A stretch of 64,000 nt of DNA, taken from positions 5,149 to 69,148 of the forward strand of contig NZ_JAQTLS010000016.1 in the NCBI RefSeq assembly GCF_028714775.1, in the 5' to 3' direction. The translations under genes and the position numbers were made by a program. Numbering within the stretch: the first letter of the stretch is position 1; each line of letters begins with the position of its first letter. This stretch comes from Thiothrix sp. (GTDB lineage: Bacteria > Pseudomonadota > Gammaproteobacteria > Thiotrichales > Thiotrichaceae). The notes beneath the pieces were generated by a model. It did not search any database, was not told the origin of the DNA, and worked only from the letters and a program-made list of their open reading frames with translations. Of this stretch, positions 11,830 through 30,080 are shown one piece after another.

Positions 11830-11831
11830 AA

Positions 11832-13589: not shown

Positions 13590-13632
13590 GGCGGCTTCCA
13601 TTTATTGTTGTATTCATGCGGAAGCCTCCAAT

Positions 13633-14256
13633 CTAGCGGTATTCCACCAAATCGTCCAGTGCTTGGCGCAGACGGGGCGTTTGTTCGCCAGCGCGGTAGC
13701 CGAATGCCACTGCCACCGCCACGCCGTAACGTTGGGTGTCGATTTCCAGCAGCGTTTCCACGCCTTCTTTGGACATGCCTTCAATCGGGCAGGAATCAAT
13801 CCCCAAACTCGCCGCGCCCGTCATCATGTTTGCCAGCGCGATATAGCACTGCTTGGAACTCCACGCGAAGGTATTCATGTACGGTCGGATTTCAGCATCA
13901 TAGTGAGCGGCATATTTCGCCAGATACGCTTGCTTAGCCGCTTCCGGCAAACCCCGGCGCTCGAATAGGCGTTGCACGTATTCACTGCCCGGCTCTACCT
14001 CGGCAACTTTCGCCAGAATCACCACCACGTGGCTGCTATCGGTAATCTGCGGCTGGTTCCAGCACACTTCGCGCAATTTCGCCCGCAACGCCGGGGTTTG
14101 TACCACCACGAAACGCCAGTGTTCCATGCCAAACGACGACGGCGACAGGTGGGCAAATTCCAGAATCTGCTGAAATTCGTCAGCGGGAATGGTGCGTGCC
14201 GGATCGAATTTCTTGCAGGCATGGCGGAAGGACATCGCTTGCATGAATGCTTGCAT
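13633..14256 (-). CDS. NAD(P)H nitroreductase-family oxidoreductase
   Basis: 207-aa nitroreductase fold (RHACKKFD, SPSSFGMEHWRF, IDSCPIEG). AGGAG ribosome-binding site. Confidence 0.85.
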   Translation of the reverse strand: MQAFMQAMSFRHACKKFDPARTIPADEFQQILEFAHLSPSSFGMEHWRFVVVQTPALRAKLREVCWNQPQITDSSHVVVILAKVAEVEPGSEYVQRLFERRGLPEAAKQAYLAKYAAHYDAEIRPYMNTFAWSSKQCYIALANMMTGAASLGIDSCPIEGMSKEGVETLLEIDTQRYGVAVAVAFGYRAGEQTPRLRQALDDLVEYR

Positions 14257-16864: not shown

Positions 16865-19800
16865 ATGAAGCGTAAAACGTGGTTTTATGCCTTGCCGTTG
16901 GTATTGGCGGTGCAAGGTGCTTTGGCTGGGACAAACTTGGTTACGGACGGCGGTTTTGAAAGCGGTTCGCTAGCATGGGCAAGTACCAAATCCATCCTCA
17001 CCCTTGACCCTGTGGCAGCTTATGCCGGACAAGCTGGGATGAAAGTCAATTCCGCCTATAGCGGGTGTGCTACCGGGGCACTGTACACCTTGAACACCGC
17101 CAACCTGCAAAATGGCACACTCTACGAATTTGGGGCGCGGGTACGCTTGAGCAGTGGTGTGGGCAGTTCTGCCAACCTTTCCCTTGGTTTGATCAAGAAC
17201 GGGGCTAGCCCAATCACCCTGGATGGCGAGCAATCCAGCTACGATGCCGGGGTTTATCCCGACAAATGGACGCAGGTGTTTGGGGTGTGGCAAGCCAGTT
17301 TTACCCCCACCGACACGCTCAAAGTCTGTATTAGCGGGGCTGCCAACAAACCGTTCCATGTGGATGAAGTGTTTGTGAAACCACTGACCACAGACGAGGT
17401 TGGCTACCAACCGCCCGCAACGCTGGATACTTCGGCCTTGATCCATGCTGATGGCAACCGCTTGGTGATGGGGACGCAAAAAACCCCGTTCCTGATGAAA
17501 GGGATCAACGTTTACCTGTATGACCAAGGCAATGATGTTGACCCACCGCCACCCCTCGACGATTTCAAGTACAAAAATATTGATGCGGCATCTTATAAAG
17601 AAATCCGTGACCTCGGCTTCAACAGTGTGCGCCTGATGCTATCTTACAACCTGTTTGAGAACAGCACCGCACCCGGTGTCTACAAGAATGAAGGCTGGGC
17701 ATTAGTTGACCGGCATATCCAGTGGGCCAAACAAAACGGCTTGCGTTTGATACTGGATATGCACGTCCCACCCGGTGGCTACCAAAGCAACGATTTCACT
17801 GGGTTTGGTAGCCGTGCTGACCTGAAAAAACGCTTGGAAGATTTGTGGGTGGCCATCGCCCAGCGTTACCGCAATGAAACCACCATCGCCGCTTATGACT
17901 TGATTAATGAACCGCACATCAACAACTGGTTTATATACGCCCAAACCCTGATCAGCAAAATCCGTGCGGTGGACAGCAACCATTTGATTGACGTGGAGGT
18001 GTCTTTCCACCCCAGCGACATCGGCATGTACAAACTGGCGGACAACAATATCCTGTACGATGTCCACTGGTATGAGCCTTGGAGTTGGGCAGGTTCACAT
18101 ACCAACAATACGCCTTACGTTGGCACATTGGCACAGTTCAAACAGCAGCTCCGTGAAGGGGAAGGCTTGACTGAGTTCTACGATGCCGCCACTGACAGCT
18201 TTACCGTGCCGTTCAACATTGGTGAATACGGGGTCACGTTCGAGAAATACGAATTGGCAGGTGTAAACGGGGAGACATGGTTGCAACACGCCAATGCCGC
18301 GTTTGACCATTTCGGTATCAGCCGCCAGTTGTTCCACTACAACGAGCCGAACTTTGGCATTTACCGGGGTTGGAACAGCTACCCTAATGAACACACAAAG
18401 ACCACTGTGGCTCTCAAGGAAGCACTGCCAACCATCAACGGTGTTAATGGCATCAATCCCGATGCCTTCAGCTTCACCGACCAGACCGACGTGGCACGAT
18501 CCACCGTAATCACCTCCGACACCATCACCGTTAGCGGTCTTAAAGTGGCGGCAGACATCGGCGTGAGTGAAGGGGAATACCGCATCAACGGCGGGGCGTA
18601 CACATCTGCGGCGGGGACGGTCAACAATGGTGACACGGTGCAAGTACAGCACACATCATCTGCCAGTTATGCCACTGCCACCAATACTGTCCTGAGCATC
18701 GGCAGTGTGTCAGACACCTTTAGCTCCACCACGCTTGCAGACCCGAATGATACGACCCCCAACCCATTCAGCTTCACCGACCAAACGGGCGTGGCGCTAT
18801 CCACCCTGACGGAATCCAACGGTATCACCCTTGGTGGGATCAACAGTGCTGCGCCGGTTTCAGTCACTGGAGGGGAATACCGCATCAACGGCGGGGCGTA
18901 CACCTCGGCAGCGGGGACGGTCAATAACGGCGACCAAGTAAAGGTGCGCCACATGTCTTCCGACCTGTCTAAAACCAAGGTGAACACTATCCTGACCATC
19001 GGCAGCGTATCCGACACGTTCACCAGCACCACAGCTACCGCCGACACCAAGCCGAATGCCTTCAGTTTTGCTGCACAGAAGGATGTTCCGCTGAACAGTA
19101 CGGTTGAATCCGCCAACATCACAGTCAGCGGGATCAATGCGCCTGCCAGCATCAGCGTAAGTTCCGGCAGTGGCAGCTCCTACAGCGTCAACGGCGGAGC
19201 TTATAGCAGCACAGCGGGTAAAGTGAGCAACGGGGACAGCGTGAAGGTGCGGCATACCTCGTCCGGCAAATCTAATGCCAGTGTGACCACCACCATCACT
19301 ATTGGCGGGGTCAATGGAGCCTTTAAAAGCACCACTGGTGATGTCACACCTAACACTTTCAGCTTTGTCACCAAAGCCAGCGCCGCCCTTGCCACACCCG
19401 TTGAATCCGGGGTCGTGACCATCGGCGGCATCACGCTTCCGACCGCCATCAACGTGGCAAACGGCGAGTACCGCGTCAACGGTGGAACATATACCGCTAC
19501 TGCTGGGACGGTCAGCAACGGCGACAAGGTGCAAGTGCGGCACACGACTTCCGCTAGTTTCTCCACCAGCGTCACTACCACGTTGACTGTCGGCGGGGTC
19601 AACGGCGTGTTCAAGAGCACTACGTTGGCGAAGGACACTAGGCCGGATGCTTTCATCTTCAACGCGCAGACGGGTGTTGCGCCTTCAACAGTGGTTGAAT
19701 CCAATGCCATCACGGTCAGCGGGATTAATGCAGCAGCCAGCATCAGTGTTACCGGCACGGGTGCGGCCTACAGCATCAACGGTGGGGCATACACCAGCGC

Positions 19801-19930
19801 TGCGGGGACGGTCACTGAGGGCAAGACCGTGAAGGTTCGCCACACTTCCTCCAGCAAGGCACTTACCGCTATGAGCAGTGTCCTAAACATCGGCGGGGTC
19901 AAAAGTACTTTCACCAGCACTACGCGCTGA
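16865..19930 (+). CDS. Secreted multidomain GH5 cellulase: CBM4/9-like module + GH5 catalytic domain + five tandem ~98-aa C-terminal domains
   Basis: Signal peptide, then N-terminal GTNLVTDGGFESG... (CBM_4_9-like). The GH5 core has GFNSVRLMLSY, YDLINEPH (acid/base Glu) and FNIGEYGV (nucleophile Glu). Five repeats follow. Confidence 0.85.
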   Translation: MKRKTWFYALPLVLAVQGALAGTNLVTDGGFESGSLAWASTKSILTLDPVAAYAGQAGMKVNSAYSGCATGALYTLNTANLQNGTLYEFGARVRLSSGVGSSANLSLGLIKNGASPITLDGEQSSYDAGVYPDKWTQVFGVWQASFTPTDTLKVCISGAANKPFHVDEVFVKPLTTDEVGYQPPATLDTSALIHADGNRLVMGTQKTPFLMKGINVYLYDQGNDVDPPPPLDDFKYKNIDAASYKEIRDLGFNSVRLMLSYNLFENSTAPGVYKNEGWALVDRHIQWAKQNGLRLILDMHVPPGGYQSNDFTGFGSRADLKKRLEDLWVAIAQRYRNETTIAAYDLINEPHINNWFIYAQTLISKIRAVDSNHLIDVEVSFHPSDIGMYKLADNNILYDVHWYEPWSWAGSHTNNTPYVGTLAQFKQQLREGEGLTEFYDAATDSFTVPFNIGEYGVTFEKYELAGVNGETWLQHANAAFDHFGISRQLFHYNEPNFGIYRGWNSYPNEHTKTTVALKEALPTINGVNGINPDAFSFTDQTDVARSTVITSDTITVSGLKVAADIGVSEGEYRINGGAYTSAAGTVNNGDTVQVQHTSSASYATATNTVLSIGSVSDTFSSTTLADPNDTTPNPFSFTDQTGVALSTLTESNGITLGGINSAAPVSVTGGEYRINGGAYTSAAGTVNNGDQVKVRHMSSDLSKTKVNTILTIGSVSDTFTSTTATADTKPNAFSFAAQKDVPLNSTVESANITVSGINAPASISVSSGSGSSYSVNGGAYSSTAGKVSNGDSVKVRHTSSGKSNASVTTTITIGGVNGAFKSTTGDVTPNTFSFVTKASAALATPVESGVVTIGGITLPTAINVANGEYRVNGGTYTATAGTVSNGDKVQVRHTTSASFSTSVTTTLTVGGVNGVFKSTTLAKDTRPDAFIFNAQTGVAPSTVVESNAITVSGINAAASISVTGTGAAYSINGGAYTSAAGTVTEGKTVKVRHTSSSKALTAMSSVLNIGGVKSTFTSTTR
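18458..19927 (+). repeat. Five in-frame tandem repeats (294-300 bp) encoding ~98-aa beta-rich domains
   Basis: Units start at 18458, 18758, 19052, 19349 and 19643. Consensus: P-[DN]-x-F-S-F-x-x-Q-x-x-V...T-V-S-G-I...GEYRINGGAYTSAAGTVxNGDxVxVRHTSS...TLTIGGVxxxFxSTT. Confidence 0.85.
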
Positions 19931-19970: not shown

Positions 19971-20082
19971 TGATGTCAGCACATAAAAGCACATGCGAAG
20001 TCACTAAAGCCTTCTTCATGCCTTGCGTTCTGCGCCCCCAATCCGGTATACGGTAGGCAAGACATCCAAACGCGGGAGCATC

Positions 20083-20730
20083 ATGTTTAAGCACTGCCAA
20101 AGCAGGTCAGGGTTCCTACTCTTAGGTATCGCCACGCTGTTGGCGCTATTGGCCTTGACCACCCTTTTCGACCATGACCCAGCGGGTATGGATGCCTTTT
20201 TTGGGCTGAGCATGTTTAGCTTTGCCACGGGGATTCCCGGCCTATTCCTGTGTTTGCGTGCCACCGAGCCTGTGAAAACTGACACGCCGGGGTTAACAGC
20301 TTGGCTGCATAAAACCGTGAGGTCGATGGCGTGCTGCGAGTCTGGCATTGCCGCTGCATTGAACGCCATCGCTTTGATATTTTTGGGAATCACGCTGCTG
20401 ATGGCAGCAGATGCTTGGTTCAATGCAGACCCCGACGCGCAAGAAGGTGTAATGGGCGGTATGGTCATGACGGCGCTGGTCGGTCTGGCGGGAATAATGG
20501 CCTGCAAACCCCGGCAACCCACAACCGAAGCCCCGCGACATCCAGTAACCCATACACCGAAGGTACGCCCAACTGCACAAGGTTTGGGGAACTTCAAAGT
20601 GATGCGGCTCGCCTGCCCTGCCTGTAATGCCTCAATCCCGGCGCATCTGTGGAATGGCGGGCAAACCCACCTGAATTGCCCGTATTGCGGCACGGATGTG
20701 GTGGTACAGGAAACTGAAACCAGAACCTAG
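20083..20730 (+). CDS. Membrane protein with C-terminal zinc ribbon (hypothetical)
   Basis: The ATG at 20083 follows GGGAG. About 5 hydrophobic helices, with C-terminal CPACN...CPYCG. The overlapping minus-strand ORF looks non-protein-like. Confidence 0.55.
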   Translation: MFKHCQSRSGFLLLGIATLLALLALTTLFDHDPAGMDAFFGLSMFSFATGIPGLFLCLRATEPVKTDTPGLTAWLHKTVRSMACCESGIAAALNAIALIFLGITLLMAADAWFNADPDAQEGVMGGMVMTALVGLAGIMACKPRQPTTEAPRHPVTHTPKVRPTAQGLGNFKVMRLACPACNASIPAHLWNGGQTHLNCPYCGTDVVVQETETRT

Positions 20731-20753
20731 ACATCCCCACGCCAACAAAAAGC

Positions 20754-20774
20754 CCCGTATAACGGGGCTTTTCG
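20754..20774. terminator. Bidirectional intrinsic terminator between convergent genes
   Basis: AAAAA-GCCCCGT-ata-ACGGGGC-TTTT: a 7-bp GC stem flanked by A and T runs. Confidence 0.6.
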
Positions 20775-20790
20775 GTTTCAGCCAAGGGGA

Positions 20791-21210
20791 TTAGTTCATC
20801 GGCACACCCAAACCGTCGTCGAGGTATTTCTGCAAACGTTCGGTGCGGGTTTCGGTCATGGCTTGCAGTTCGCCATTGACCAACATCGGGTACATGCTGC
20901 CCCAGCACACCCGTATATCACCTTCGTCACAGGCAAACTGGGCGGCAATTTCAGCATCACGGAACGCAATCCACGCCTTTTGCGCGGCTTTCAGCTTGGC
21001 AGTGGCGGTTTTGTCGCTCTTGAATTGCGCCATCAACTTTTTCCAGGTGGCGTTGAGCTTTTTGTCCGCCGCCGCGTAATCATCGGCGGCGCACTGATTC
21101 ATTTCCATTTGGTTGCCGTCGGGGTTGCATTCGATCTCCCCGGCGGTAACGGTGGTGGTGGATAACAGCAATACCAAAGCGGTGCTGATAACAATTTTCA
21201 TCATAGTCAT
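20791..21210 (-). CDS. LprI-family (DUF1311) periplasmic protein
   Basis: Signal peptide, then the DUF1311 pattern MNQCAADDYAAADKKLNATWKKL...AQKAWIAFRDAE... Confidence 0.8.
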   Translation of the reverse strand: MTMMKIVISTALVLLLSTTTVTAGEIECNPDGNQMEMNQCAADDYAAADKKLNATWKKLMAQFKSDKTATAKLKAAQKAWIAFRDAEIAAQFACDEGDIRVCWGSMYPMLVNGELQAMTETRTERLQKYLDDGLGVPMN

Positions 21211-21293
21211 TTCCCATTATTTAATAAATATGTGTAGTCCAAAAAAATCAGAGAATTGAACCATCAATTACTCCGATTCTGCATCATTCATAT

Positions 21294-21752
21294 TCACTTA
21301 CCAAATTTGGCGCGTTCCAGCGACTGCCTCCATAAGGATTCATTATTTACCAAAAAAGCTACGCTATCAGCTTGATCATTGATATTTTTAAAATACACCT
21401 TCAACATTTTTCGTCCAAATACGACTTTACCAAGATGGCTATCCACAAGCTCTACATGATTAATATCTTGCATGGGAATCACCAACTCGGTTGAGAAAAA
21501 TGCGGCCTTGTACCACAACTCCGTTGCTGTTAGTGCCAGCGCACCATTTCCCCGGAGCTGGAGCCGCCCTTTACTTTCCACCCCTACAAAATAAGCGCCA
21601 GCATCAGAAAGTATTGGCTTATCAAGCGGATAACGGCTTTCCAGAACCTCTTGCCCTGATTGCCCTATCCGACTCCACAACAACCAAAAAGCTACCAGCA
21701 CAATACTGACAATGACAATAACACCAGCAATAATTACAAGCACATTATTCAT
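21294..21752 (-). CDS. Single-pass membrane protein with PH/GRAM-like cytoplasmic domain (hypothetical), last gene of the radical-SAM operon
   Basis: N-terminal TM helix VLVIIAGVIVIVSIVLVAFWLLW followed by a ~110-aa beta-rich domain (LQLRGNGALALTATELWYK...KVYFKN). Its ATG overlaps the stop of the upstream gene (ATGA). Confidence 0.6.
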   Translation of the reverse strand: MNNVLVIIAGVIVIVSIVLVAFWLLWSRIGQSGQEVLESRYPLDKPILSDAGAYFVGVESKGRLQLRGNGALALTATELWYKAAFFSTELVIPMQDINHVELVDSHLGKVVFGRKMLKVYFKNINDQADSVAFLVNNESLWRQSLERAKFGK

Positions 21753-23704
21753 GAAACCTTCTCCAATTTTACCAGAGACTGACTTATCTTCTGATTGGTT
21801 ACTGCTTTCAGGAGACCTTTACGTTGCCATTCTTCCAGTTGATATACACCTTCAGTGATAACCAATGATAAATACTTGGCTCCATCCGTGATGATCAATT
21901 GTAATGCCAATAAATACTCAAGTGCCTCACCGATTTCATCTACTGAGAATTCAGGTAAATTCTGCATTAATAACGTCCGCGAGGTCGGTGCATGTAGCGC
22001 CAGCAAAACTGCACGACGGCTGCCTTGCAATGCGTGCCGCAGCGGACTTCCCCTCCGGCTGTCTTCTACCTGTAATGTATCCCCTTCGCGCTTAACAATG
22101 ATACACTTCGGCTCCGCATTATCACCACGCCATGCCCCAGTCCACAGCTCACTCTCCAGCAGAAGAGCATCATAGGCTGTATTGTCTAATACCCCTTTCC
22201 AATCGGCTTCATGATAATAGGCCACTTTGCGAATATTGACACTATCACTGGGATAAAGCTCCTCGTACCAACGCATAGGGCGTAAATTCGTTGTCCAATG
22301 CTCTTCTTCAAAAAAATAAGGGCTAAAGCGATGGCACTCTACTTTGGGTGTTCCACCATAAGCAGGGCGTAAATGACGTAGTTGCGGGAGTAACTTCACC
22401 ATATTGGCATAATCCTCTGCCATTTCCCCCGGAATACGAATCAAATTATTCCAATAAACCGTAATCCCCTGTTCCTGACAAGTGCGCATAAAATAAATAT
22501 TCTGTAAAACCGTCACACCTTTACGCATCTGCTTCAGGATGTTATCGGACAGCGATTCAATACCGGGTTGTAAATACAATACTTTGGCCGCAGCCAATTG
22601 CTCGATTTGATGTTGCCGCAGATTGGTTTTGACTGTCCAAAAATACTCAACATCTGAACGAGGTAAATTATTTTGCAATCGTGGAAGCAAGTCATGAAAA
22701 TATGACATTGGCATAATATTATCTGCCGCTTGAAACCGTTTCACCCACGGATAACGTGCCGCCAAAGTATGCAATAGTGCTAGCGTATTATCTGCCGAGC
22801 GAGCACGATAATTCATGCCATCCCCATTCAATCCACAAAAGGTGCAATGCTGTTTCTGCCCCCACCAGCAACCTCGACTGGATTCAAAAGGAATCAAAAC
22901 CCGCATACGCCAATTCGGGTCTTGCAGATAGTTGACATTTTGCGCCTCCGTGAAGAAATCACTAAAATCCGGGGCAGGAATACGATCCAACGTTTCGCTA
23001 TCAATAGGTTGGTGAGGTTTATCTTTTATCACCTCTCCATCTGATGTTTGGCGGTACAAAATTCCTTGTAAACCGGATGGTGTTCGTTCTTCCAGCATCG
23101 CCTGACACAACGGTACAATAACGTCATCCGCTTCTCCGGTGGAACAGGCATCTATCCAATTCGCTACCCGCATCAGTTCTTCCCCCATTTCTCCGTGAAA
23201 ACATGCACCACCGTAGAGCAGTTTCACATGGGGGAAACGTTGTTTGAGACGACGCCCCAAAGCCAGGGCGGGCAGTGTCTGGAAAAATGAACAACTAAAC
23301 GCAACCACCTGCACGGGCGCAACGGCCAACAAACGCGTTATACATTGATCAAGAAACGCAGGCACAATCTGGTGGCGAATTTGATGTAACCATGCAGGTA
23401 AATCTTTGACATGTGGAATCCCCTCTAACTCATCCCCTGAAAGGCTCAAAAAGTCTTCTTCTGACAGCCCGAACTCCCGTTGCCACGCCTCTTGGGCAAA
23501 CAGCCATTCACCTATCTGGGTTTCCACACCTTTAAAACGGGCAATAATTTCGTATGCACCCGCCCCTATCAAACGTGAAAATGCCATATTGAAAGGAAAC
23601 ACTTGCGCGGCAATTCCTGCCTCAGCCAATTGAGCCTTGAATTGCCCTAACGCCAAACTCGGTGTTGTGATGGAGCCAAAGGGCATTTGCACCAGATGAA
23701 TCAT
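21749..23704 (-). CDS. B12-binding-domain (class B-type) radical SAM enzyme, RiPP-maturase-like
   Basis: 651 aa. N-terminal IHLVQMPFGSITTPSLALGQFKAQLAEAGI... (Rossmann-like B12-type half). Cluster motif SRGCWWGQKQHCTFCGLNG (Cx7Cx2C). I recognise this as the pattern of a family annotated as RiPP-maturation radical SAM (TIGR03975-like); this is from memory and has not been searched. Confidence 0.85.
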   Translation of the reverse strand: MIHLVQMPFGSITTPSLALGQFKAQLAEAGIAAQVFPFNMAFSRLIGAGAYEIIARFKGVETQIGEWLFAQEAWQREFGLSEEDFLSLSGDELEGIPHVKDLPAWLHQIRHQIVPAFLDQCITRLLAVAPVQVVAFSCSFFQTLPALALGRRLKQRFPHVKLLYGGACFHGEMGEELMRVANWIDACSTGEADDVIVPLCQAMLEERTPSGLQGILYRQTSDGEVIKDKPHQPIDSETLDRIPAPDFSDFFTEAQNVNYLQDPNWRMRVLIPFESSRGCWWGQKQHCTFCGLNGDGMNYRARSADNTLALLHTLAARYPWVKRFQAADNIMPMSYFHDLLPRLQNNLPRSDVEYFWTVKTNLRQHQIEQLAAAKVLYLQPGIESLSDNILKQMRKGVTVLQNIYFMRTCQEQGITVYWNNLIRIPGEMAEDYANMVKLLPQLRHLRPAYGGTPKVECHRFSPYFFEEEHWTTNLRPMRWYEELYPSDSVNIRKVAYYHEADWKGVLDNTAYDALLLESELWTGAWRGDNAEPKCIIVKREGDTLQVEDSRRGSPLRHALQGSRRAVLLALHAPTSRTLLMQNLPEFSVDEIGEALEYLLALQLIITDGAKYLSLVITEGVYQLEEWQRKGLLKAVTNQKISQSLVKLEKVS

Positions 23705-25155
23705 GTTACCTCCAACACTTCGGTCGTTGCAGAAGGCTCTTTATCCTGTGGTTTCAGGATAACCTTATCTACACACAATTCCTGTGGGTTAGTATAAACC
23801 ATTTCAGCATCCCAATCGGTCGGCAAAATAGCAGCACTTTTCTCCGCCCGTAGCAGCAATCGCTCCTTGATATTGTATTTCCAGCTTGGACAAGGTAAAG
23901 AAGCCGCCTCACCACGTGTATCATCTGCGTGCAAAAATTTATACGCACACGCGCCCGCACAATTCGGCAGTAATTTGCAGTTACGGCATGCATCGTTATT
24001 GAACGGCGACCAACTCAACCATCTCATGGTTTTTTCAGAGCGGATAGCTTTATCCATATCAAAAATAGAGCCAATCGCATGTTGCGGATATGTCACGGTA
24101 TCCCAACACTTATGAATATCACCGGAGGGAATCACAATAAAACTGCTCGGACGGATTGCACCACAACTCCCATGAAACCGGGGAGGATAAGGCAGCCCTG
24201 TCAGTCCTTTATCAAACGCATAACGGTAAATCCGGGTTTCCAACTGGCCATAATCCGACTTGCTCATGCAAGCCCCTTCGACCGAATGGCAACCAACTGT
24301 CATCGCCTCAATGGGAGCAAAATACAACCGGAAATTTTGCTGGTTGGCTAAACCTTCTGCCGCCAACACATCCAGCAATTGAAAAACGCCCGTACTATTA
24401 CGATGGTCAATATTGACACGGATATTGATTTTTAGCGGGGTATGAGTCACCACTTCTTTCAGATTTTTAATGATTTTATCGAACGTATTGCCCCCCGATA
24501 ACAAGAAGCGACGGCTATCGTGGTATACCTGATTACCATCCAATGTCACCTGTACCGTTTTTACTCGTTTTTTCACCAGGGTTTGAGCCACCGCGAGCGT
24601 CAAACGATAGCCATTCGTAACCGCCATGGCATCGTATTGAATATTTCTTTCATCACACACAGCCATAAAACGGTCTGACAGGGCTTCAATCACGTTCATA
24701 CGCAACAATGGTTCACCACCATACCAGGCAATATGCACATGATTTAACTCATGGCTGAGTTTTAAAACAAAATCCACCACCGCATCCTGAACCGTCTGCC
24801 CCATGGTTTCGATCGGTTTATCTTGTCCCTGGAAGCAATAATCACAGGCAAAATTACAGGCCAAGGTGGGGGCAACCGTCAGGACTAATGTCCGACGGTT
24901 AAAACGGTGTAGTCGATATTGTCCATGCAATAACTCCAACTCATCGGTTTCCGGTGTTACCAAATAGCCACCGTAAAACAATTCTGCGGCTGTGCGACTA
25001 TCGGTAGTTTCCCGCCCTTGGGCAATGTCCTGAAACACCTGCGCCTCGGCTGGCTCCCATACGGCTAGTGCGCCGCTCATACCGTTGTATGCCAATTCAC
25101 GCCCATCTTTTAACGGCGCAGTAATCACGTAACGGGAGGTTTTGTATCGACTCAT
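23701..25155 (-). CDS. Radical SAM/SPASM-domain peptide-modifying enzyme (anaerobic sulfatase-maturase-like fold)
   Basis: The start is trimmed to MSRYKTSRYVITAPLKDGRELAYNGMSGAL (ATG 25155, GGAG ribosome-binding site). It has the canonical CNFACDYC (CxxxCxxC) and C-terminal auxiliary-cluster cysteines including CRNCKLLPNCAGAC (Cx2Cx5Cx3C SPASM signature). Confidence 0.9.
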   Translation of the reverse strand: MSRYKTSRYVITAPLKDGRELAYNGMSGALAVWEPAEAQVFQDIAQGRETTDSRTAAELFYGGYLVTPETDELELLHGQYRLHRFNRRTLVLTVAPTLACNFACDYCFQGQDKPIETMGQTVQDAVVDFVLKLSHELNHVHIAWYGGEPLLRMNVIEALSDRFMAVCDERNIQYDAMAVTNGYRLTLAVAQTLVKKRVKTVQVTLDGNQVYHDSRRFLLSGGNTFDKIIKNLKEVVTHTPLKINIRVNIDHRNSTGVFQLLDVLAAEGLANQQNFRLYFAPIEAMTVGCHSVEGACMSKSDYGQLETRIYRYAFDKGLTGLPYPPRFHGSCGAIRPSSFIVIPSGDIHKCWDTVTYPQHAIGSIFDMDKAIRSEKTMRWLSWSPFNNDACRNCKLLPNCAGACAYKFLHADDTRGEAASLPCPSWKYNIKERLLLRAEKSAAILPTDWDAEMVYTNPQELCVDKVILKPQDKEPSATTEVLEVT

Positions 25156-25181
25156 GCCTATTCTCCGGGTCACTTTCAACG

Positions 25182-25216
25182 AAAAAAACTTTCCCCTCCC
25201 GATCGCATGAGGAAAG
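25182..25216 (-). terminator. Hairpin plus U-tract between the Cys-repeat protein gene and the radical-SAM genes (putative partial terminator/attenuator)
   Basis: Minus strand reads CTTTCCTC-atgcgatcgg-GAGG(GG)AAAG followed by TTTTTTT. It begins 11 nt after the stop at 25227-25229. Confidence 0.5.
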
Positions 25217-25226
25217 CTATCTGAAG

Positions 25227-27695
25227 TCAAATCCCCGGAATAATAGGGATAAGATCCACAGCGCAAGCATCTGCTGCACAAGCATCCGCTGGACATAAAT
25301 TGATGGCACAAACATTGGCGGCACAAGCATCTGCACCACACGCATTAATCGGTGACACTTTGGCAGCACATGCCGTTGCACCTGCCACTGCCGCGCCACA
25401 AACATCCCCACCACACGCATCCCCGCCACAGGCTGCTGCACCACATGCAGCAGCGCCACAGGCTGCTGCGCCGCAAGCTGCCGCGCCACAGGCATCCGCA
25501 CCACATGCTGCAATCCCCGCCAGCGCAGCACCACACGCAGCCGCACCGCACGCACCGGCACCTGCAACATCTGCGCCACAAAGTGCAATGACCGAAACCG
25601 CAGCACCACAAGCCCCTATCAATGTCGCAGCGGCACCACAAGCAGCGGCGGCACACGCATCTGCCCCACAAGCATCCGCACCGCAGGCATCCGCGCCACA
25701 AAGGTCAGCACCACAGGCTTCTGCCCCACAGACTGCTGCACCACAAACAGCTGCTCCACCTGATGATGTGCTGGTTGCCCCACTGCCCGCTGGTGCAATA
25801 GAAATACTCCCCTCGACAGGAGACAATGCCCACAACTGGTTTAGCCCACCATTCCATGGGTAAGTGCTAACCTCACCACCATCTCCTGTCGTACTTAAAT
25901 CCAGTGCCAAACCACTGTGCAGTGCTTCAATCCGGAACTTTCCACCCTGGACTTCCGTGATTTTCCAACGCTGATTATTGGCATCATTTGAAGCCCACGA
26001 ATAAACCTTTGCGCCTACATTACCAAAAGCATAGACATCCATTGACTGGTTGTTAGCCGCATTCAGGATTCGGTACGTCCCATCAGGGTGAGCAACAAAT
26101 TTCCATTGCTGATTTGCAGCCCCACTCAACTTGCGTTGCCTGACTTGGGCATCGTTAGCCTCAGCAGTCAGAACCAGTCCTGAGCTAAGCGGTGAAATGG
26201 TATACGTTTGAGCTGGCCCGCCTTCCGCCGTGCTATTGTCAAACATACGGATAATCTCAAATGTCTCCCATGCTCCACACGCGGCACGGTTAGCATTGGC
26301 ATCCCCACCAGCTTCAGCCACCAAATACTTTTGCTGAGGAACAGACTTGAATGCAATTTTATCCCCCACACTCATGAAACTATTGGAAGCAGTAGCCCCT
26401 GCACGAATAACCTGCCACTGCTCAGACGTACCCGCCGCCGAGCTAACGGTGGTCACATCTCCCCCCGCAGTGGCAGACAAAAACGTATTGTGCTGCGTTT
26501 TTAGCGATACGATGTCACCGAAACTGGCAAGTGGCATGGTCGTGGTTGGACCAGAACGGACCAGCGTGAAGGTTTCCCCAATCGCATTTGATGCAGCATC
26601 CGCCCGGACATTACCATTTGTTTCTGTCATCCACTTGCCATGAGCAGTTTTTAGCTGAATCTTGTCACCAAAACGCAAAGCCCCCTTGGGTACAACAACC
26701 CCCATTTGTTTAACAATAATGGATGATGCTTTATCATTAAAATTTGCGACAATGGTTTCAGCACAATCAGAGTAATAAGTGCGGAAATCGCCTTGAAAAT
26801 CAGGGTACTCATATAAAGTTACCAACATACCATAGGGAACACGCAGGGAACTGATAGTATTATCAGGCAACCCCATAGCCGTTGCATCTTTGTATACCCC
26901 AACTCCTAGCGTAGCTGAACTGCCTCTATAATACGTATGTTCATAAAAGGTAATAACTTTCTGGACAACAGCCGACGACGCTTGATTATCTACATTACTT
27001 TCCAAGCGGGGCGTGTCTGCCGTATATTTGCGGACTTCACCCCTAAAATTGGGATGCTGATAAAGGGAAATTTCCAAACCTTGCGGCACTCTAACAGAGG
27101 AAATATCATCGTTATACATACTTAAGTCATTTATATCATAACTCCCGATCCCCAATATATAATTAGCCCCCGTATAATTATCCCCCTGATAAATGGTCAC
27201 TGCGAGTTCCTGGGCAACATCTTTGGAGCGGACAGCCGACAATATCCATAACTGATTCAAATTACCATGCCAAGGGTAAGTGATAATTTCACCCCCATCA
27301 CCAAGGGTACCCAAATCCAGAGCCAAACCACTATGCACAGCTTCGATACGAAAATGCCCGGCCTGAACTTCAGTTATTCGCCAACGCTGGTTATTGGCAT
27401 CGTTTGAGTCCCACGAATAAACTTTTGCACCCTGCCCGCCAAACGCATACACATCCATCGACTGATTAGTAGCGATATTCTGGATTCGGTATGTGCCGTC
27501 AGAATTTGCCACAATTTTCCATTGCTGGTTGGTAGCTTCATTCCATTTATATTGCTTAATCTGCGCGCTTCTCGCATCAGCCGTAAGTGCAAAACCCGAA
27601 TAGGCAGATGAAATTGCGTATACCTGATCCTGATTGCCGCCCACTAGCGGGCTATTTACAGAATGGGGGGCTAAAGGTTGGACAAGGTATTTCAT
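25227..27695 (-). CDS. 822-aa multidomain protein: ricin-B lectin / two beta-gamma-crystallin domains / fascin-like beta-trefoil / ricin-B lectin / C-terminal 27-Cys pentapeptide-repeat tail. Putative substrate of the downstream radical-SAM enzymes
   Basis: Domain motifs are listed in the sub-features below. No signal peptide is recognisable (MKYLVQPLAPHSVNSPLVGGNQDQ). The tail runs ...VCGAAVCGAEACGADLCGADACGADACGADAC...CGAAACGAAACGAAACGAAACGGDAC...CPADACAADACAVDLIPIIPGI. Confidence 0.85.
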   Translation of the reverse strand: MKYLVQPLAPHSVNSPLVGGNQDQVYAISSAYSGFALTADARSAQIKQYKWNEATNQQWKIVANSDGTYRIQNIATNQSMDVYAFGGQGAKVYSWDSNDANNQRWRITEVQAGHFRIEAVHSGLALDLGTLGDGGEIITYPWHGNLNQLWILSAVRSKDVAQELAVTIYQGDNYTGANYILGIGSYDINDLSMYNDDISSVRVPQGLEISLYQHPNFRGEVRKYTADTPRLESNVDNQASSAVVQKVITFYEHTYYRGSSATLGVGVYKDATAMGLPDNTISSLRVPYGMLVTLYEYPDFQGDFRTYYSDCAETIVANFNDKASSIIVKQMGVVVPKGALRFGDKIQLKTAHGKWMTETNGNVRADAASNAIGETFTLVRSGPTTTMPLASFGDIVSLKTQHNTFLSATAGGDVTTVSSAAGTSEQWQVIRAGATASNSFMSVGDKIAFKSVPQQKYLVAEAGGDANANRAACGAWETFEIIRMFDNSTAEGGPAQTYTISPLSSGLVLTAEANDAQVRQRKLSGAANQQWKFVAHPDGTYRILNAANNQSMDVYAFGNVGAKVYSWASNDANNQRWKITEVQGGKFRIEALHSGLALDLSTTGDGGEVSTYPWNGGLNQLWALSPVEGSISIAPAGSGATSTSSGGAAVCGAAVCGAEACGADLCGADACGADACGADACAAAACGAAATLIGACGAAVSVIALCGADVAGAGACGAAACGAALAGIAACGADACGAAACGAAACGAAACGAAACGGDACGGDVCGAAVAGATACAAKVSPINACGADACAANVCAINLCPADACAADACAVDLIPIIPGI
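25230..25745 (-). repeat. Coding 15-bp-periodic repeat: 27 Cys at exact 5- or 10-residue spacing (aa 651-811) plus an 11-aa hydrophobic C-terminus
   Basis: Counted unit by unit. Every inter-Cys distance is 5 (20 times) or 10 (6 times). Units are GADAC x5, GAAAC x5, then GAEAC, GADLC, GGDAC, GGDVC, PADAC, AADAC, AANVC, AINLC and others. Identical peptide units use different synonymous codons. Confidence 0.9.
25818..26210 (-). other. Ricin-B-type lectin domain 2 (aa ~496-626), a close paralog of domain 1
   Basis: QQW / QRW / QLW motifs again. Long identical stretches with domain 1 (NQSMDVYAFG, GAKVYSW, SNDANNQRW, ITEVQ, FRIEA, HSGLALDL, GDGGE, TYPW, LNQLW). Confidence 0.75.
26244..26684 (-). 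other. Fascin-like beta-trefoil domain (aa ~338-484)
   Basis: Three internal repeats FGDKIQLKT..GKWM / FGDIVSLKT..NTFL / VGDKIAFKS..QKYL, each ending in a W/F-x-[LVI] segment (ETFTLVR, EQWQVIR, ETFEIIR). Confidence 0.55.
26706..27203 (-). other. Two beta/gamma-crystallin-type domains (four Greek-key motifs, aa ~165-330)
   Basis: The pattern [IV]T[IF]Y[QE]..[NY][YF].G......G.Y.....L..NDxISS[VL]RVP.G..[IV][ST]LY[QE][HY]P[ND]F[RQ]G recurs twice. Confidence 0.7.
27231..27626 (-). other. Ricin-B-type lectin (beta-trefoil) domain 1 (aa ~24-155)
   Basis: Three QxW motifs (QQW, QRW, QLW) spaced about 45 aa apart, with GTYRIQN...SMDVY...FRIEAVHSGLALDL. Confidence 0.75.
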
Positions 27696-27756
27696 AAGTA
27701 AGCTCTCTCTTAAATTCGTTAACAGCTCTAATTCATGTAAGCATCAGGATAGTGAA

Positions 27757-27776
27757 AAGCCCCAGCTAAGTGGGGC
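27757..27776 (-). terminator. Intrinsic terminator after the beta-propeller-like gene, separating it from the Cys-repeat protein gene
   Basis: 7-bp stem AGCCCCA / TGGGGCT with a 6-nt loop, followed on the minus strand by TTTTC. Confidence 0.6.
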
Positions 27777-27784
27777 TTGATAAT

Positions 27785-28573
27785 TCACTGGTCATCAAAC
27801 GTCACTCCCGTATAGGTAATACGCGGGAAGTTCATTTTTTTCAACTGTTGCCCATCGACACTGTAGCGGTACAAATTATCTTTCGTGGAAAGGTAAACAT
27901 CATTGCTGTCACCTGCCGCAATGCCGGTTGGGCTAAAACCTGTTTCCACGAAATTTTCTTGCTCCAACCGGGCATCACGGACAGTGAAACCGCGCTGCGA
28001 ACCGTTGTAAGCGGCATAAACCTTGCCACCCTTAACGGCGATACCGGAATAGTTGATACCTGGCTCAGGGAATGTCATATCAACCAATAACTGCCCATCG
28101 TTACTGTACTTATACAAATGGTTACGTGCCGCCAAATAAATGAGGCCATTATCATCAAGCGCAATCGCACTCGGCGCAAACGGTGTGGGGAACACATCGG
28201 ATTGCTCCAGGGTTTCCGCATTGCGCACGCTAATACCCGTCTGCGAACCCGTATAGGTCACATAAATATTCACGCCATGCAAAGCTACCCCGGTGTATTT
28301 GATGGTGGAATCACCCCACGCAAAATGAGCCAACTCCTGACCATCCTTGTCGTAGTGGTAGATATTGTTTTTCGACAAGGTATAAAACGTATCGCCTTCA
28401 CCATCGCCAATCGCACCCGGTGCAAAAGTCATCGGTAAAAATGCCGACTGCGTTAAGTTCTCATCCCGCACCGTCACCCCGCGTTGTGAGTCGGTGTAGG
28501 AAGCATAAATTGTCCCTGCTTGGGCATGACCAAACATCCCCAATACCAAACCTGACAATAACCATTTTTTCAT
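27785..28573 (-). CDS. Secreted repeat protein, beta-propeller-like (three ~80-aa repeats)
   Basis: The start is trimmed to MKKWLLSGLVLGMFGHAQA. The repeated block is [IV]Y[AV][ST]Y[TN]GSQ.G[VIF][ST]VR[DN]..L.Q......F.P..IA.....[VI]YL....[NH]LY[KR]YS.DGQ.L...... Confidence 0.65.
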   Translation of the reverse strand: MKKWLLSGLVLGMFGHAQAGTIYASYTDSQRGVTVRDENLTQSAFLPMTFAPGAIGDGEGDTFYTLSKNNIYHYDKDGQELAHFAWGDSTIKYTGVALHGVNIYVTYTGSQTGISVRNAETLEQSDVFPTPFAPSAIALDDNGLIYLAARNHLYKYSNDGQLLVDMTFPEPGINYSGIAVKGGKVYAAYNGSQRGFTVRDARLEQENFVETGFSPTGIAAGDSNDVYLSTKDNLYRYSVDGQQLKKMNFPRITYTGVTFDDQ

Positions 28574-28654
28574 AAACCCCTCGCTCTCAAATGACCAAAA
28601 ACCGCTTACTTGGCAGTAACTTTCCAGCCACACCAGTTGCCACTGATAAACTTG

Positions 28655-29383
28655 TCACTTCACCGTGATCTTAAACGCGAATTTGCCTTTCCACGGATCA
28701 GCCTTCTTACACTCGACCACCTGAATTTTGTAGTCGCCTGCAATTGTGGGCTTGACCTTTGCATTGCTGTGGCAGGAAAGATCCATGTCATTGGCGTTTT
28801 CACCCTTGGGGTCAGTGATATAGATGGAAACGGAACCATCACTTTTCTTGTCCAGCTGTTCCACCGTCATGGTCTGGCCTTTACCTACGCCGATGAGATA
28901 GTTCTGCTCACCGTCGAAATCGGCAAGCTTGCCCGTAACTACCGCGCTGGATGCGCCCTTGGCAAACTTGATCCGGGTTGGAGCAGCACTGGCTTTACCC
29001 TTGGGCTTTGCTTCCTTTTTGTCCCATGCGCAAATCTCAGCATTTTTGCCAACCCAGCAACCACCCTTGAGTTTGAAATCTTCACCCAGCAACTCCTGTG
29101 CGTGGGATGCCTGCTCTGTGCCATTCCAGGAAGCCCCCGCCACGCCTTTTTCCAGCATATTCAGGTAAACAAAATACTTGTCCCCAAACAGGCGGAAAGA
29201 ACCATCCTTGTCGGCATCGTATATGCACGTACCCTTGAGGTAGGTTTTGCCCTTGACCTTCAGTGAGCAATCCACTTCGCGGCCTTCCGCTTCCTTGCGC
29301 CAATCTTCAGCATGGGCGACTGTTGCTTGCCCGAATAAGCTTGCGGCTAATAATGCAGCCACAGACAGTAATTTCATTTCCAT
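28655..29383 (-). CDS. Secreted hypothetical protein
   Basis: Signal peptide MKLLSVAALLAASLFGQATVAHA. Two Cys-containing halves joined by a Lys-rich linker. The start is placed at 29383 by GAGG spacing; 29389 and 29377 are also possible. Confidence 0.6.
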   Translation of the reverse strand: MEMKLLSVAALLAASLFGQATVAHAEDWRKEAEGREVDCSLKVKGKTYLKGTCIYDADKDGSFRLFGDKYFVYLNMLEKGVAGASWNGTEQASHAQELLGEDFKLKGGCWVGKNAEICAWDKKEAKPKGKASAAPTRIKFAKGASSAVVTGKLADFDGEQNYLIGVGKGQTMTVEQLDKKSDGSVSIYITDPKGENANDMDLSCHSNAKVKPTIAGDYKIQVVECKKADPWKGKFAFKITVK

Positions 29384-29429
29384 AACCATTCCTCACTAAA
29401 CTGGTTTGTAACAACTCAACTCGATTCGC

Positions 29430-30080
29430 CTAATCCCCAGCCACCAGCGATGTCATCTGCCAACGCCCGTTAACTTTCTCAAACGATGCACGGTAATCCA
29501 CTGGACTACGCGCAAAACTACGGGAAACATAACCTTTTTTACCATCAGGTAGCTTGATAGCGACCCACGCATCATTGCCATGATCGGTTGTATCCACTGG
29601 TACAACCTCATAGCTAAGCGTTTGTAGAACTTCACTATCCGTTTTAGGTGCTTTGCGCACATTGACCTTGTTACCGACAATCGCGGTATTTTCAAACCCA
29701 TCCCCAGCCGCATCGGGCCAACTCGAAGCCACATAGGGCGCGGCGAAACTGCCATCACTTTGGAAACTGCCACCCAATGCCAACACCGTGCCGAGCGTTT
29801 CCCACAACTCGCTATTCGACTTGTCGATGGCCCAATTTTTCTTGAAATGGTCGATGCCGTTATCGTCGCCATAGCCATTTTGGACAGTCTTGCTGACGAC
29901 TGCCAACACTGCCGCCTTGTCGCGTTTCGCCACTGCAATCTGCAATTGCGCACGAAAAGTAAAAAAGTCGGGCTGTTTTGCCGCTTCATCCACTGGTAAC
30001 AGTGGCGCTGCTTGCAACATGACAGGAAGAGCTAACATTACCCCAACAAAACTGGCTGCTAACCATGAACGCTTTAACAT
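29430..30080 (-). CDS. Secreted protein with C-terminal SH3b-like domain (hypothetical)
   Basis: Signal peptide (FVGVMLALPVMLQA) and an SH3b-like segment GNKVNVRKAPKTDSEVLQTLSYEVVPV...WVAIKLPDGKKGYV. Confidence 0.6.
   Translation of the reverse strand: MLKRSWLAASFVGVMLALPVMLQAAPLLPVDEAAKQPDFFTFRAQLQIAVAKRDKAAVLAVVSKTVQNGYGDDNGIDHFKKNWAIDKSNSELWETLGTVLALGGSFQSDGSFAAPYVASSWPDAAGDGFENTAIVGNKVNVRKAPKTDSEVLQTLSYEVVPVDTTDHGNDAWVAIKLPDGKKGYVSRSFARSPVDYRASFEKVNGRWQMTSLVAGD

Follow-up and report, generated by a model that had tools for sequence, protein, structure and literature searches.

What does a bacterium make with an operon in which a giant lectin-like protein is encoded beside two radical S-adenosylmethionine (SAM) enzymes? 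This question is raised by a locus of Thiothrix sp. that lies within a 64,000-nucleotide stretch of contig NZ_JAQTLS010000016.1 (positions 5,149 to 69,148; hereafter the window, to which Thiothrix coordinates refer). Four co-directional minus-strand open reading frames (ORFs), here called A, B, C and D, occupy 21294-27695 in the six-frame ORF list, in agreement with the four genes described in an earlier inspection made without database searches (the sequence-only reading). Gene A (25227-27695) encodes an 822-aa candidate precursor composed of a leader motif, lectin/crystallin cargo, a core with Cys at every fifth position and a C-terminal motif. Gene B (23701-25155; 484 aa from an ATG, with GGAG upstream) encodes a radical SAM/SPASM maturase of family TIGR04463, gene C (21749-23704; 651 aa) a PoyC-like, B12-type radical SAM C-methyltransferase of family TIGR03975, and gene D (21294-21752; 152 aa) a cassette-specific protein with one predicted transmembrane (TM) helix and a putative PH/PTB-like domain. 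Our overall reading, which we consider probable, is that these genes form a mobile cassette for the maturation of a protein-sized precursor resembling those of RiPPs (peptides that are made on ribosomes and modified after translation).

The cysteine tail of A and the radical SAM/SPASM enzyme B

The core of A (25263-25745, minus strand; residues 651-811) contains 27 Cys residues over approximately 32 pentads with the consensus C-G-A-(A/D/N)-(A/V/L). Spacing between successive Cys residues was always 5 or 10, placing all 27 in a single five-residue phase; under random phases, the chance that the 26 further Cys would share the phase of the first is approximately 7e-19. A Cys-repeat tail had been proposed for the last ~170 residues of A, and the 27 phased Cys were found within the last 172. 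The 15-nt period of the underlying DNA was only 66-76% matched, as in a degenerate repeat, and across 27 homologous proteins 650 tail Cys were in phase and none was out of phase. Thus, the phasing of the tail is not a by-product of recent DNA amplification. In these homologues the pentad consensus was C (77%), G (64%), A (59%), A/D/N and A/V/L, with Cys as the sole invariant repeat residue. Toward the C-terminus, C791, C796, C801, C806, C811, N794, D804, D809 and D814 were invariant, and position 4 of the last five pentads was invariably Asp or Asn (N794, N799, D804, D809 and D814 in A). A phmmer search with the last 72 residues of A matched only 174 clusters among 1.84 billion representatives.

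The product of gene B matched the NCBIfam model TIGR04463 ("rSAM_vs_C_rich") with 589.6 bits against a cutoff of 525 (residues 9-443 aligned to positions 1-434 of 438), and so passes the equivalog-level cutoff of this family of radical SAM/SPASM RiPP maturases. The radical SAM motif CNFACDYC (CX3CX2C) corresponds to C100, C104 and C107. This motif and a C-terminal SPASM signature had been noticed from the sequence; the full seven-Cys SPASM pattern is present (C331-X13-G-X4-C350, C390-X2-C393-X5-C399-X3-C403, C422), and the SPASM domain model TIGR04085 was matched over residues 331-413 (53.2 bits, cutoff 27). The radical SAM and SPASM Cys residues were invariant in 20 homologues of B.

Related loci were collected by scanning one genome per GTDB species with a profile of B, which yielded 80 loci, and their 4597 ORFs were clustered all-against-all. 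An ORF with at least six phased Cys adjoined the TIGR04463 homologue in 53 of the 80 loci, which bears on the question of the sequence-only reading as to whether orthologues of B consistently lie beside Cys-repeat proteins. The same reading had allowed that the radical SAM genes might co-vary with a different small peptide gene; none was found among the 4597 ORFs. Within the Thiothrix locus there is no room for a hidden small precursor gene, as the intergenic gaps in and beside the cassette measure only 71, 89 and 83 nt. Collectively, the comparison of these loci suggests that the tail of A is very probably the substrate of B.

An alternative is that the tail is not a substrate at all but a metal- or Fe-S-binding or disulfide-rich region, either metallothionein-like or a pentapeptide-repeat beta-helix, with the radical SAM enzymes acting elsewhere. 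The tail is rich in Cys, Gly, Ala and Asp. Read in the register A-(D/N)-(A/V/L)-C-G, it follows the pentapeptide-repeat consensus A(D/N)LxX and has the strict five-residue periodicity of the Rfr-fold proteins, and 9 of 10 tested non-family phmmer matches to the last 72 residues were true PF00805 proteins (e.g., E 2.3e-12). However, the central residue of the pentads in A is mostly Ala rather than Leu or Phe, the Pfam pentapeptide models gave no match to the tail even at E <= 10, and AlphaFold2 (AF2) predicted neither strands nor a beta-helix there, with a predicted local distance difference test (pLDDT) score of 20-32. A tail folded as a pentapeptide-repeat beta-helix was therefore set aside as being without support from either the Pfam models or AF2, and a solenoid stabilized by cross-links is a reading of low probability. 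The tight adjacency of B to such tails in 53 of 80 genomes also argues against the non-substrate explanation, as do the B-adjacent tails that have a leader of only 17-27 aa, like ordinary RiPP precursors, and the absence from the cassette of any other fitting small ORF or further conserved gene. We regard this explanation as very unlikely.

The chemistry that B would perform was approached through its relatives. B scored below the cutoff of each of the other NCBIfam maturase models considered, namely Clo7bot, CefB, FlmE/OhkG, geopeptide, anSME, PapB (115 bits, cutoff 340), CcpM (95, cutoff 500), SCIFF (87, cutoff 425), QhpD (81, cutoff 453) and RumMC (51, cutoff 720). A profile of 20 B homologues identified CteB (5wgg) as the best solved relative (E 6e-19), aligned over the radical SAM and SPASM regions, followed by TigE (8vpo), anSME, ChlB and SkfB. 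When the single sequence of B was searched against the PDB, TigE (8vpo) ranked on top and anSME (4k36/4k37) was also among the closest. The position of CteB as closest solved relative, the Cys-peptide maturases among the neighboring models (Clo7bot, CefB, PapB, CcpM, SCIFF and QhpD), the Cys residue as sole invariant of the repeat and the Asp or Asn at position 4 of the last five pentads all point to thioether formation, which we favor by a small margin.

B may also act on the tail by a different chemistry: oxidation to formylglycine as by anSME, carbon-carbon or cyclopropane bond formation on Ala or Val as by TigE/TvgB, or epimerization producing a beta-helical D/L pattern as in polytheonamide. 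In favor of these options, the solved structures nearest to B include anSME (4k36/4k37) and TigE (8vpo), and C is PoyC-like, the PoyC pathway including epimerization. TigE acts on a repeating motif; like B, TigE and TvgB belong to the radical SAM/SPASM enzymes, and each works through the numerous copies of a short motif that one precursor contains (PMC10878394). However, cyclopropyl synthases have a unique GYW motif whose Tyr ligates auxiliary cluster I (PMC10878394), and this motif is absent from B, so that B was rejected as a cyclopropyl synthase of the TvgB/TigE type. In addition, the repeat in A is defined by a strictly invariant Cys and not by Val or Ile, no anSME-type C-x-P/A-x-R motif was read in the tail sequence, and CteB, a thioether enzyme, was the best profile match over the full radical SAM and SPASM region. 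A chemistry other than thioether formation is thus judged unlikely.

The giant candidate precursor, its end motifs and the proteins C and D

Protein A is laid out as a 16-residue leader-type motif, approximately 610 residues of folded glycan/Ca-binding domains, a linker, the 161-residue core and an end motif, all on the minus strand. The leader-like motif MKYLVQPLAPHSVNSP (27648-27695; residues 1-16) opens the protein, and M1, V5, P7 and P16 were nearly invariant in the homologue alignment. By Pfam, A carries two ricin-B domains, beta/gamma-crystallin domains and a DUF7910/FRG1 (fascin-like) trefoil. The first ricin-B beta-trefoil lectin domain (27225-27620; residues 26-157; PF00652/PF14200; AF2 pLDDT 85-96) has QxW motifs (QQW/QRW/QLW) at residues 57, 103 and 148. 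It is followed by two beta/gamma-crystallin domains (26706-27203; residues 165-330; PF00030, 83.2 bits; pLDDT ~80-93) with four N/D-N/D-x-x-S-S motifs at residues 195, 236, 278 and 320, and by the fascin/FRG1/DUF7910-like beta-trefoil (26235-26678; residues 340-487; PF25490 and PF06229; pLDDT ~76-94). The second ricin-B lectin domain (25815-26210; residues 496-627; best PF14200 stretch 527-603; pLDDT 53-76), with QxW at residues 529, 575 and 620, is an additional copy missing from most homologues, most of which align over only ~59% of A. A Gly/Ser/Thr/Ala linker (25746-25814; residues 628-650) ending ...SSGGAAV then leads into the core, and the C-terminal motif A-V-D-L-I-P-I-I-P-G-I (25230-25262) closes the protein. 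In the AF2 model of A, which was built with 27 homologues, residues 1-484 were folded (block-mean pLDDT mostly 76-96) and residues 628-822 had pLDDT of 20-32 (below 30 from the start of the linker on). The unmodified tail is thus predicted to be disordered, as expected of an enzyme substrate.

Both ends of A recur in proteins of very different size. The pattern M-(K/Q/R)-(Y/F)-(L/I/V)-V-x-P was found at the extreme N-terminus of substrates adjacent to TIGR04463 genes, whatever their length. Ten of the 4597 ORFs begin with this motif, of which nine are Cys-tail genes and one is an apparent split 5' part of such a gene. Substrates beside B homologues ranged from ~140 to more than 900 aa, with 17-735 residues between the start and the first phased Cys; examples are leaders of 25 aa (MKFLVKPL, locus L019), 27 aa (MRFLVRPA, L035), 650 aa (MKYLVQPL, Thiothrix A) and 733 aa (MKYIVHPV, L012). 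At the other end, near-identical C-termini were found in ~28 homologues and in 75 representative proteins, and P817 and P820 were invariant among the homologues. Since the N- and C-terminal motifs are common to short and giant precursors, these proteins are homologous at both ends, and the lectin domains lie between leader-type motif and core. On sequence evidence, then, A has the build of a RiPP-type precursor, with cargo domains inserted between its leader motif and its core. In the locus with the split gene (L007, Okeania sp.), ORF 11477-12250 starts MKYLVQPL... and the next ORF, 12424-13764, contains the crystallin/trefoil part and the Cys tail; this precursor appears to reflect a frameshift, an assembly error or a pseudogene.

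The 75 proteins with an end of the (I/V)(I/V)Px(I/V)P(G/F)I type had a median length of 687 aa; 56 were at least 400 aa long and one was shorter than 150 aa. Within this tail class, as represented by these sequences, the giant form is the norm, and lectin domains are nearly always the cargo. Their Pfam content comprised beta/gamma-crystallin (50 proteins), ricin-B (49), the crystallin-like Inhibitor_I36 (25), FRG1/fascin/DUF7910 (~23), tectonin (13), PAAR-like DUF4280 (3), tachylectin (2), LamG/ConA-like (1) and pentaxin (1) domains. That several unrelated carbohydrate-binding folds have been recruited ahead of one type of tail speaks for a role of the N-terminal part in the mature product.

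Other fusions and repeat types were observed in the wider set of loci. Sister tails ending ...CVA(L/I)PIGGNW were fused to bulb-type D-mannose-binding lectin in Saprospiraceae and Lewinellaceae (B_lectin 59.8 bits in L046, 8629-9975; 27 bits, sub-threshold, in L036, 8962-9954), and no TIGR03975 gene was found near these two loci. DUF4280 (PAAR-like) domains were fused to Cys-every-fifth tails in L017 (11471-12496; 29.2 bits) and in proteins P0206, P0301 and P0309, a domain combination suggesting that such tails may be carried by a type VI secretion spike. In Rhodobacteraceae (L068, 11834-14902, and similar genes in L052-L073), a ~1022-aa protein composed almost entirely of acidic (D/N)EG(D/N)E repeats, with a short Cys end motif (...SCGADGGFEDADACGTDACAID...), adjoins the TIGR04463 homologue, and these loci also carry C39-ABC and HlyD-like genes; it is another giant and very different substrate type of TIGR04463 enzymes. 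A near-perfect decapeptide, CSGDTGCSGV, is repeated in ~13 copies with Cys every five residues in Candidatus Acidoferrales (L026, 11472-12422), upstream of the usual CGADA-type pentads.

Gene C encodes a protein that matched the NCBIfam model TIGR03975 ("RiPP maturation radical SAM C-methyltransferase") with 597 bits against a cutoff of 281.85 (residues 2-616 aligned to positions 1-606 of 606). Profile placement of the two radical SAM proteins, which the sequence-only reading had proposed as a check, thus assigns B to TIGR04463 and C to TIGR03975. The segment SRGCWWGQKQHCTFC of C contains a Cx7Cx2C motif (C279-X7-C287-X2-C290), which was kept as SRGCWWGxKxHC(T/S/K/A)FC in 27 of 32 neighborhood homologues of at least 500 aa. 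The same unconventional motif has been reported for PoyB/PoyC and for the bottromycin C-beta methyltransferases; PoyC and the enzymes of the bottromycin pathway place methyl groups on the C-beta of Val, Pro and similar residues (PMC5682303). Similarity to the B12 radical SAM families HpnJ, BchE and BzaD was only distant (residues ~130-460), and cobalamin binding and methyl transfer by C are putative; a sequence search found no solved relative.

The distribution of C was then compared with the ends of the substrates. Of the 29 loci with a substrate ending in (I/V)(I/V)Px(I/V)Pxx, 23 have C within 10 kb, whereas none of the 20 loci with a different substrate end has it at that distance (Fisher p = 1.6e-8, uncorrected for phylogeny). 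Thus, C tracks the hydrophobic C-terminal motif and not the Cys pentads or the lectin. Neighborhood co-variation supports the earlier proposal that the SPASM enzyme, and probably the B12-type enzyme as well, acts on the tail. Because PoyC and the bottromycin enzymes methylate Val and Pro at C-beta, the Ile/Pro-rich end is the best candidate target of C, or at least a recognition site. The Cx7Cx2C motif and the co-variation with the C-terminal motif underlie the proposed methylation; that C targets this end of A is a tentative assignment. Two or three TIGR03975 paralogues per locus were present in some of L042, L043, L049 and L053, with three in L042; L043 and L049 have two tandem precursor genes with 33-41 Cys each, and the single precursor of L053 contains 49 phased Cys.

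The AF2 model of D (mean pLDDT 69.7) consists of an N-terminal TM helix, seven strands and a C-terminal helix. A Foldseek search with this moderate-confidence model gave PH/PTB domains as best matches (E 1.5e-5, TM-score ~0.45-0.6), including the Sin1 PH, ICAP1/Dok5 PTB and Lam6 PH-like domains, and Pfam bPH_4 and GRAM were matched below threshold. D belongs to no family; its homologues formed only 5 clusters in 5.8 billion proteins, all unnamed, and D adjoined the cassette in 11 loci. D is thus predicted to be a membrane-anchored PH/PTB-like protein, with its PH/PTB-like domain probably on the cytoplasmic side.

Proposed maturation and the fate of the tail

Clustering of the 4597 ORFs from the 80 loci revealed no conserved protease, exporter or regulator partner in the lectin-type loci, bearing out the earlier remark that the operon holds no peptidase or ABC exporter. 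A C39-peptidase ABC exporter was present within 10 kb in 18 loci overall, but in only 2 of 20 lectin-type loci. This exporter accompanies another precursor type, with a leader MEYVDKPF..., an SCP2-like region and a double Gly before the core, and in such systems the core is probably released. In the absence of a protease or exporter from the lectin-type cassette, the tail of A probably remains attached. The few C39 exporters, the large protein sizes and the repeated recruitment of lectins are all consistent with retention, toward which we incline, if narrowly; the earlier suggestion that the modified module stays on the lectin is plausible, as no peptidase or exporter belongs to the cassette.

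On this basis we propose the following course of maturation. Lacking an N-terminal hydrophobic stretch resembling a signal peptide, as read from its sequence, A would meet B in the cytoplasm. B, with its two sets of auxiliary-cluster Cys, would engage the leader motif, the C-terminal motif or both and move processively along the pentads, most likely converting each Cys sulfur to an intramolecular thioether to a nearby carbon. The best acceptor would be the Asp or Asn three residues after the Cys (two before the next), as in ranthipeptides or NxxC-type beta-thioethers. C would C-methylate unactivated carbons, most likely in the Ile/Val/Pro-rich C-terminal motif. The rigidified, methylated tail would probably remain covalently attached to the lectin, and the lectin/crystallin module would direct or anchor it to a glycan-bearing surface, either that of a target cell or the sheath or matrix of the producer. 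D, as a cassette-specific accessory, may bring the hydrophobic C-terminus to the membrane, whether for export, for anchoring or for self-protection.

Several points weigh against this proposal. SPASM enzymes also make C-C, C-O and cyclopropane links, epimerize residues or oxidize Cys to formylglycine, and many pentads (CGAAA) have no Asp or Asn acceptor. B is remote from any characterized enzyme (E 1e-11 by single sequence). Recognition of the substrate by B would be through a RiPP recognition element (RRE), but Pfam found no RRE/PqqD-like domain in its first 96 residues even at E <= 1, and the motif that B recognizes is a guess. The association of C with the C-terminal motif ignores phylogeny and could be explained by shared ancestry of one subclade, and the model of D has only a moderate pLDDT. 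A is an 80-kDa protein that lacks a signal peptide, and no route for its export is apparent. Finally, related short and medium-sized precursors have a double-Gly site and a C39 exporter, and the linker of A ends ...SSGG before the first Cys, where an unlinked protease could cut.

The last two observations bear on a rival explanation, that A is a classical RiPP precursor with a giant leader. The ~170-residue core would be cut off by an unlinked protease/exporter and freed as a poly-thioether peptide, and the lectin would be a leader, a chaperone, or a solubility or immunity domain. This is what the sister systems with SCP2-like leaders would suggest, as these leaders end in a double Gly (...LEAIAGG, ...DMVVGG) followed by the same kind of core and adjoin C39-peptidase ABC exporters. 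However, 18 of the 20 lectin-type loci have no such exporter within 10 kb, GG and GA dipeptides are common throughout the tail, making the GG of the linker weak evidence, and, were the N-terminal part thrown away, the repeated independent recruitment of different lectin folds would be difficult to account for. We consider release of the core less likely than its retention, and rather unlikely overall.

Retention of the tail can be taken further. The Cys tail may be a degenerate pentapeptide repeat, A-(D/N)-(A/V/L)-C-G, that is locked into a rigid rod or beta-solenoid, stapled by thioethers from Cys to neighboring Asp or Asn, methylated at its Ile/Pro end and permanently fused as a structural or functional module to interchangeable lectins, so as to form a glycan-targeted membrane-active or adhesive "warhead"; in sister proteins, such tails would be delivered by PAAR-like (DUF4280) tips or by scaffolds that resemble bulb-lectin bacteriocins. 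This is a speculative picture, and an improbable one in its entirety.

Cassette boundaries, transfer and relation to described systems

The junctions within the cassette are compact, with ATGA overlaps between B and C and between C and D and a 71-nt spacer between A and B, each of which matches the earlier description. A longer, GTG start of B at 25341 was rejected, as the gene would then overlap the tail of A in another frame and homologues begin at MSRY.... The A-B spacer (25156-25226, minus strand) contains a 10-bp hairpin, GCUUUCCUC...GGGAGGGGAAAG, directly after the stop codon of A, then U7 and the ribosome-binding site of B. This hairpin was present in both the minimum-free-energy and centroid structures; the folding z-score of the whole spacer was unremarkable, and the hairpin was not flagged by a consensus terminator scan. 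By analogy with many RiPP operons, it could be a leaky terminator that sets the ratio of precursor to enzyme. A strong hairpin of 8 G-C-rich pairs followed by U4 also lies upstream of A (27696-27790, minus strand; folding z = -2.1) and probably ends transcription of the upstream 282-aa gene, in which case A would begin its own transcription unit. Matches in a consensus scan for promoters and terminators were no higher than the shuffled expectation.

Of the ORFs that lie between 10 and 40 kb in the window, none but A-D recurred across related loci, and thus the boundaries drawn by the sequence-only reading delimit exactly the functional unit. Homologues of the lectin/crystallin part of A were present in 20-21 related loci, those of C in 27 and those of D in 11. 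Gene order varied (A-B-C-D, B-A-C-D, or A divergent from B-C) while the genes remained adjacent, and A sits between B and C in many genomes. In its flanks, the Thiothrix window carries housekeeping genes (acnB, citrate synthase, cysZ) or genes for hypothetical proteins and glycoside hydrolases that are not conserved, and neither the LuxR/histidine-kinase pair next door nor the secreted hypothetical proteins of the window were conserved with the cassette. One neighbor (16865-19930, plus strand) encodes a 1021-aa secreted protein with a glycoside-hydrolase-like N-terminal half and five to six tandem ~90-aa domains (...ITVSGI...GEYRINGGAYTSAAGTVNNGD.V.VRHTSS...); it has no NCBIfam match and is likewise not conserved with the cassette.

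TIGR04463 genes and the cassette have a patchy distribution over Gammaproteobacteria, Alphaproteobacteria, Myxococcota, Cyanobacteria, Bacillota and Acidimicrobiia. Carriers include Methylococcaceae, Alphaproteobacteria, Archangium, Haliangium, Nannocystaceae and Polyangia; the filamentous cyanobacteria Microseira, Okeania, Geitlerinema and Oscillatoria; and Ruminiclostridium sufflavum, Eubacteriales and Acidimicrobiia. The G+C fraction of the cassette is 0.479, as compared with 0.534 in the rest of the window. This low G+C content and the patchy taxonomy indicate horizontal transfer, and comparison of sequences points to a horizontally mobile cassette. The wider region 20000-30000 has a G+C of 0.465-0.515 per 2-kb window, against ~0.52-0.57 in most of the window, and also holds unconserved signal-peptide proteins (20791-21210, 27785-28633, 28655-29389 and 29430-30080); it may be an acquired island.

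The sequence-only reading had not recognized this architecture from any described RiPP class, a claim that does not stand in that form. Besides the assignment of B and C to named families, the tail of A passes the NCBIfam model NF038108 ("Cys-every-fifth RiPP peptide CefA") with 66.7 bits against a cutoff of 30, although only residues 773-818 match. In GenBank, an identical A is named "MAG: Cys-every-fifth RiPP peptide CefA [Thiothrix sp.]" and B is named "TIGR04463 family radical SAM/SPASM RiPP maturase". The link between tail and SPASM enzyme is thus already encoded in annotation resources. Full-text searches of a literature library found no paper on TIGR04463, CefA/CefB, TIGR03975-related families or lectin-fused Cys tails. 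A canonical CefA/CefB pair was rejected, as B scored 232.2 bits against the CefB (NF038107) cutoff of 600; the shared CefA tail and the TIGR04463 enzyme mark a sister system. The CefA model has 65 positions, of which 11-56 match A, whereas A is an 822-aa protein with five folded domains, and the Thiothrix cassette further includes a methyltransferase of the PoyC type and a predicted PH-like membrane protein.

Among described systems, those of PapB/freyrasin, SCIFF/CteB and NxxcB likewise pair a radical SAM/SPASM enzyme with short Cys motifs that recur in the substrate, with Asp or Asn at a fixed spacing from Cys (Cys-X3-Asp in freyrasin, N-x-x-C for NxxcB). In contrast, A spaces these residues as C-x-x-(D/N) or (D/N)-x-C, contains 27 Cys instead of ~6, has many pentads devoid of an acidic or amide acceptor, is 8-10 times larger and includes folded lectin domains, and the cassette has no protease or exporter. 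Nor is A a short (<~100 aa) precursor of the ranthipeptide or sactipeptide kind, given its 822 aa and the median of 687 aa among proteins with the same end. QhpD, a SPASM radical SAM enzyme, installs Cys-to-Asp/Glu thioethers in QhpC, the gamma subunit of quinohemoprotein amine dehydrogenase, which stays a functional protein component instead of being set free as a small peptide; as a small enzyme subunit, however, QhpC bears three or four cross-links and its cofactor role is defined, whereas A carries a long repeat appended to lectins. With PoyB/PoyC and the bottromycin enzymes, C shares the B12-type radical SAM class and the Cx7Cx2C motif, and with their substrates A shares a long, hydrophobic, Gly/Ala/Val/Ile-rich core. 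Unlike the polytheonamide proteusins, however, A has no NHLP/Nif11 leader and the cassette has no epimerase gene, and the partners of C are a SPASM enzyme and a core of Cys repeats. In lectin-like bacteriocins of the LlpA type, lectin domains target an antagonistic protein, and the sister class that fuses B_lectin domains to a Cys tail resembles them; LlpA is not known to carry a tail modified by radical SAM enzymes, and the domains of A are of the ricin, crystallin and fascin-like kinds and not B_lectin. The features that appear undescribed are the arrangement of leader, lectin cargo and core as a class norm, the conserved N- and C-terminal motifs, the association of C with the end motif, the PH-like membrane protein and the pentapeptide-like register.

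RiPP enzymology has centered on short precursors with a removed leader, whereas here 500-735 residues of folded lectin separate the leader motif from the core. RiPP genome-mining tools that limit precursor size could miss such systems, and enzymes that tolerate huge insertions between recognition sequence and core would be of interest for protein engineering. The 27 phased Cys offer a large and unambiguous mass-spectrometric readout, and cultured carriers include Methylomagnum ishizawai, Ruminiclostridium sufflavum DSM 19573 and Microseira wollei NIES-4236. If the tail is retained, radical SAM peptide chemistry would serve as a post-translational modification of proteins that creates a targeted functional module. 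The cassette is relevant to the biology of filamentous and social bacteria, being carried by Thiothrix, methanotrophs, myxobacteria and filamentous cyanobacteria; were the tail indeed a stapled rod, these proteins would form a new class of enzyme-cross-linked lectins spread horizontally among such organisms.

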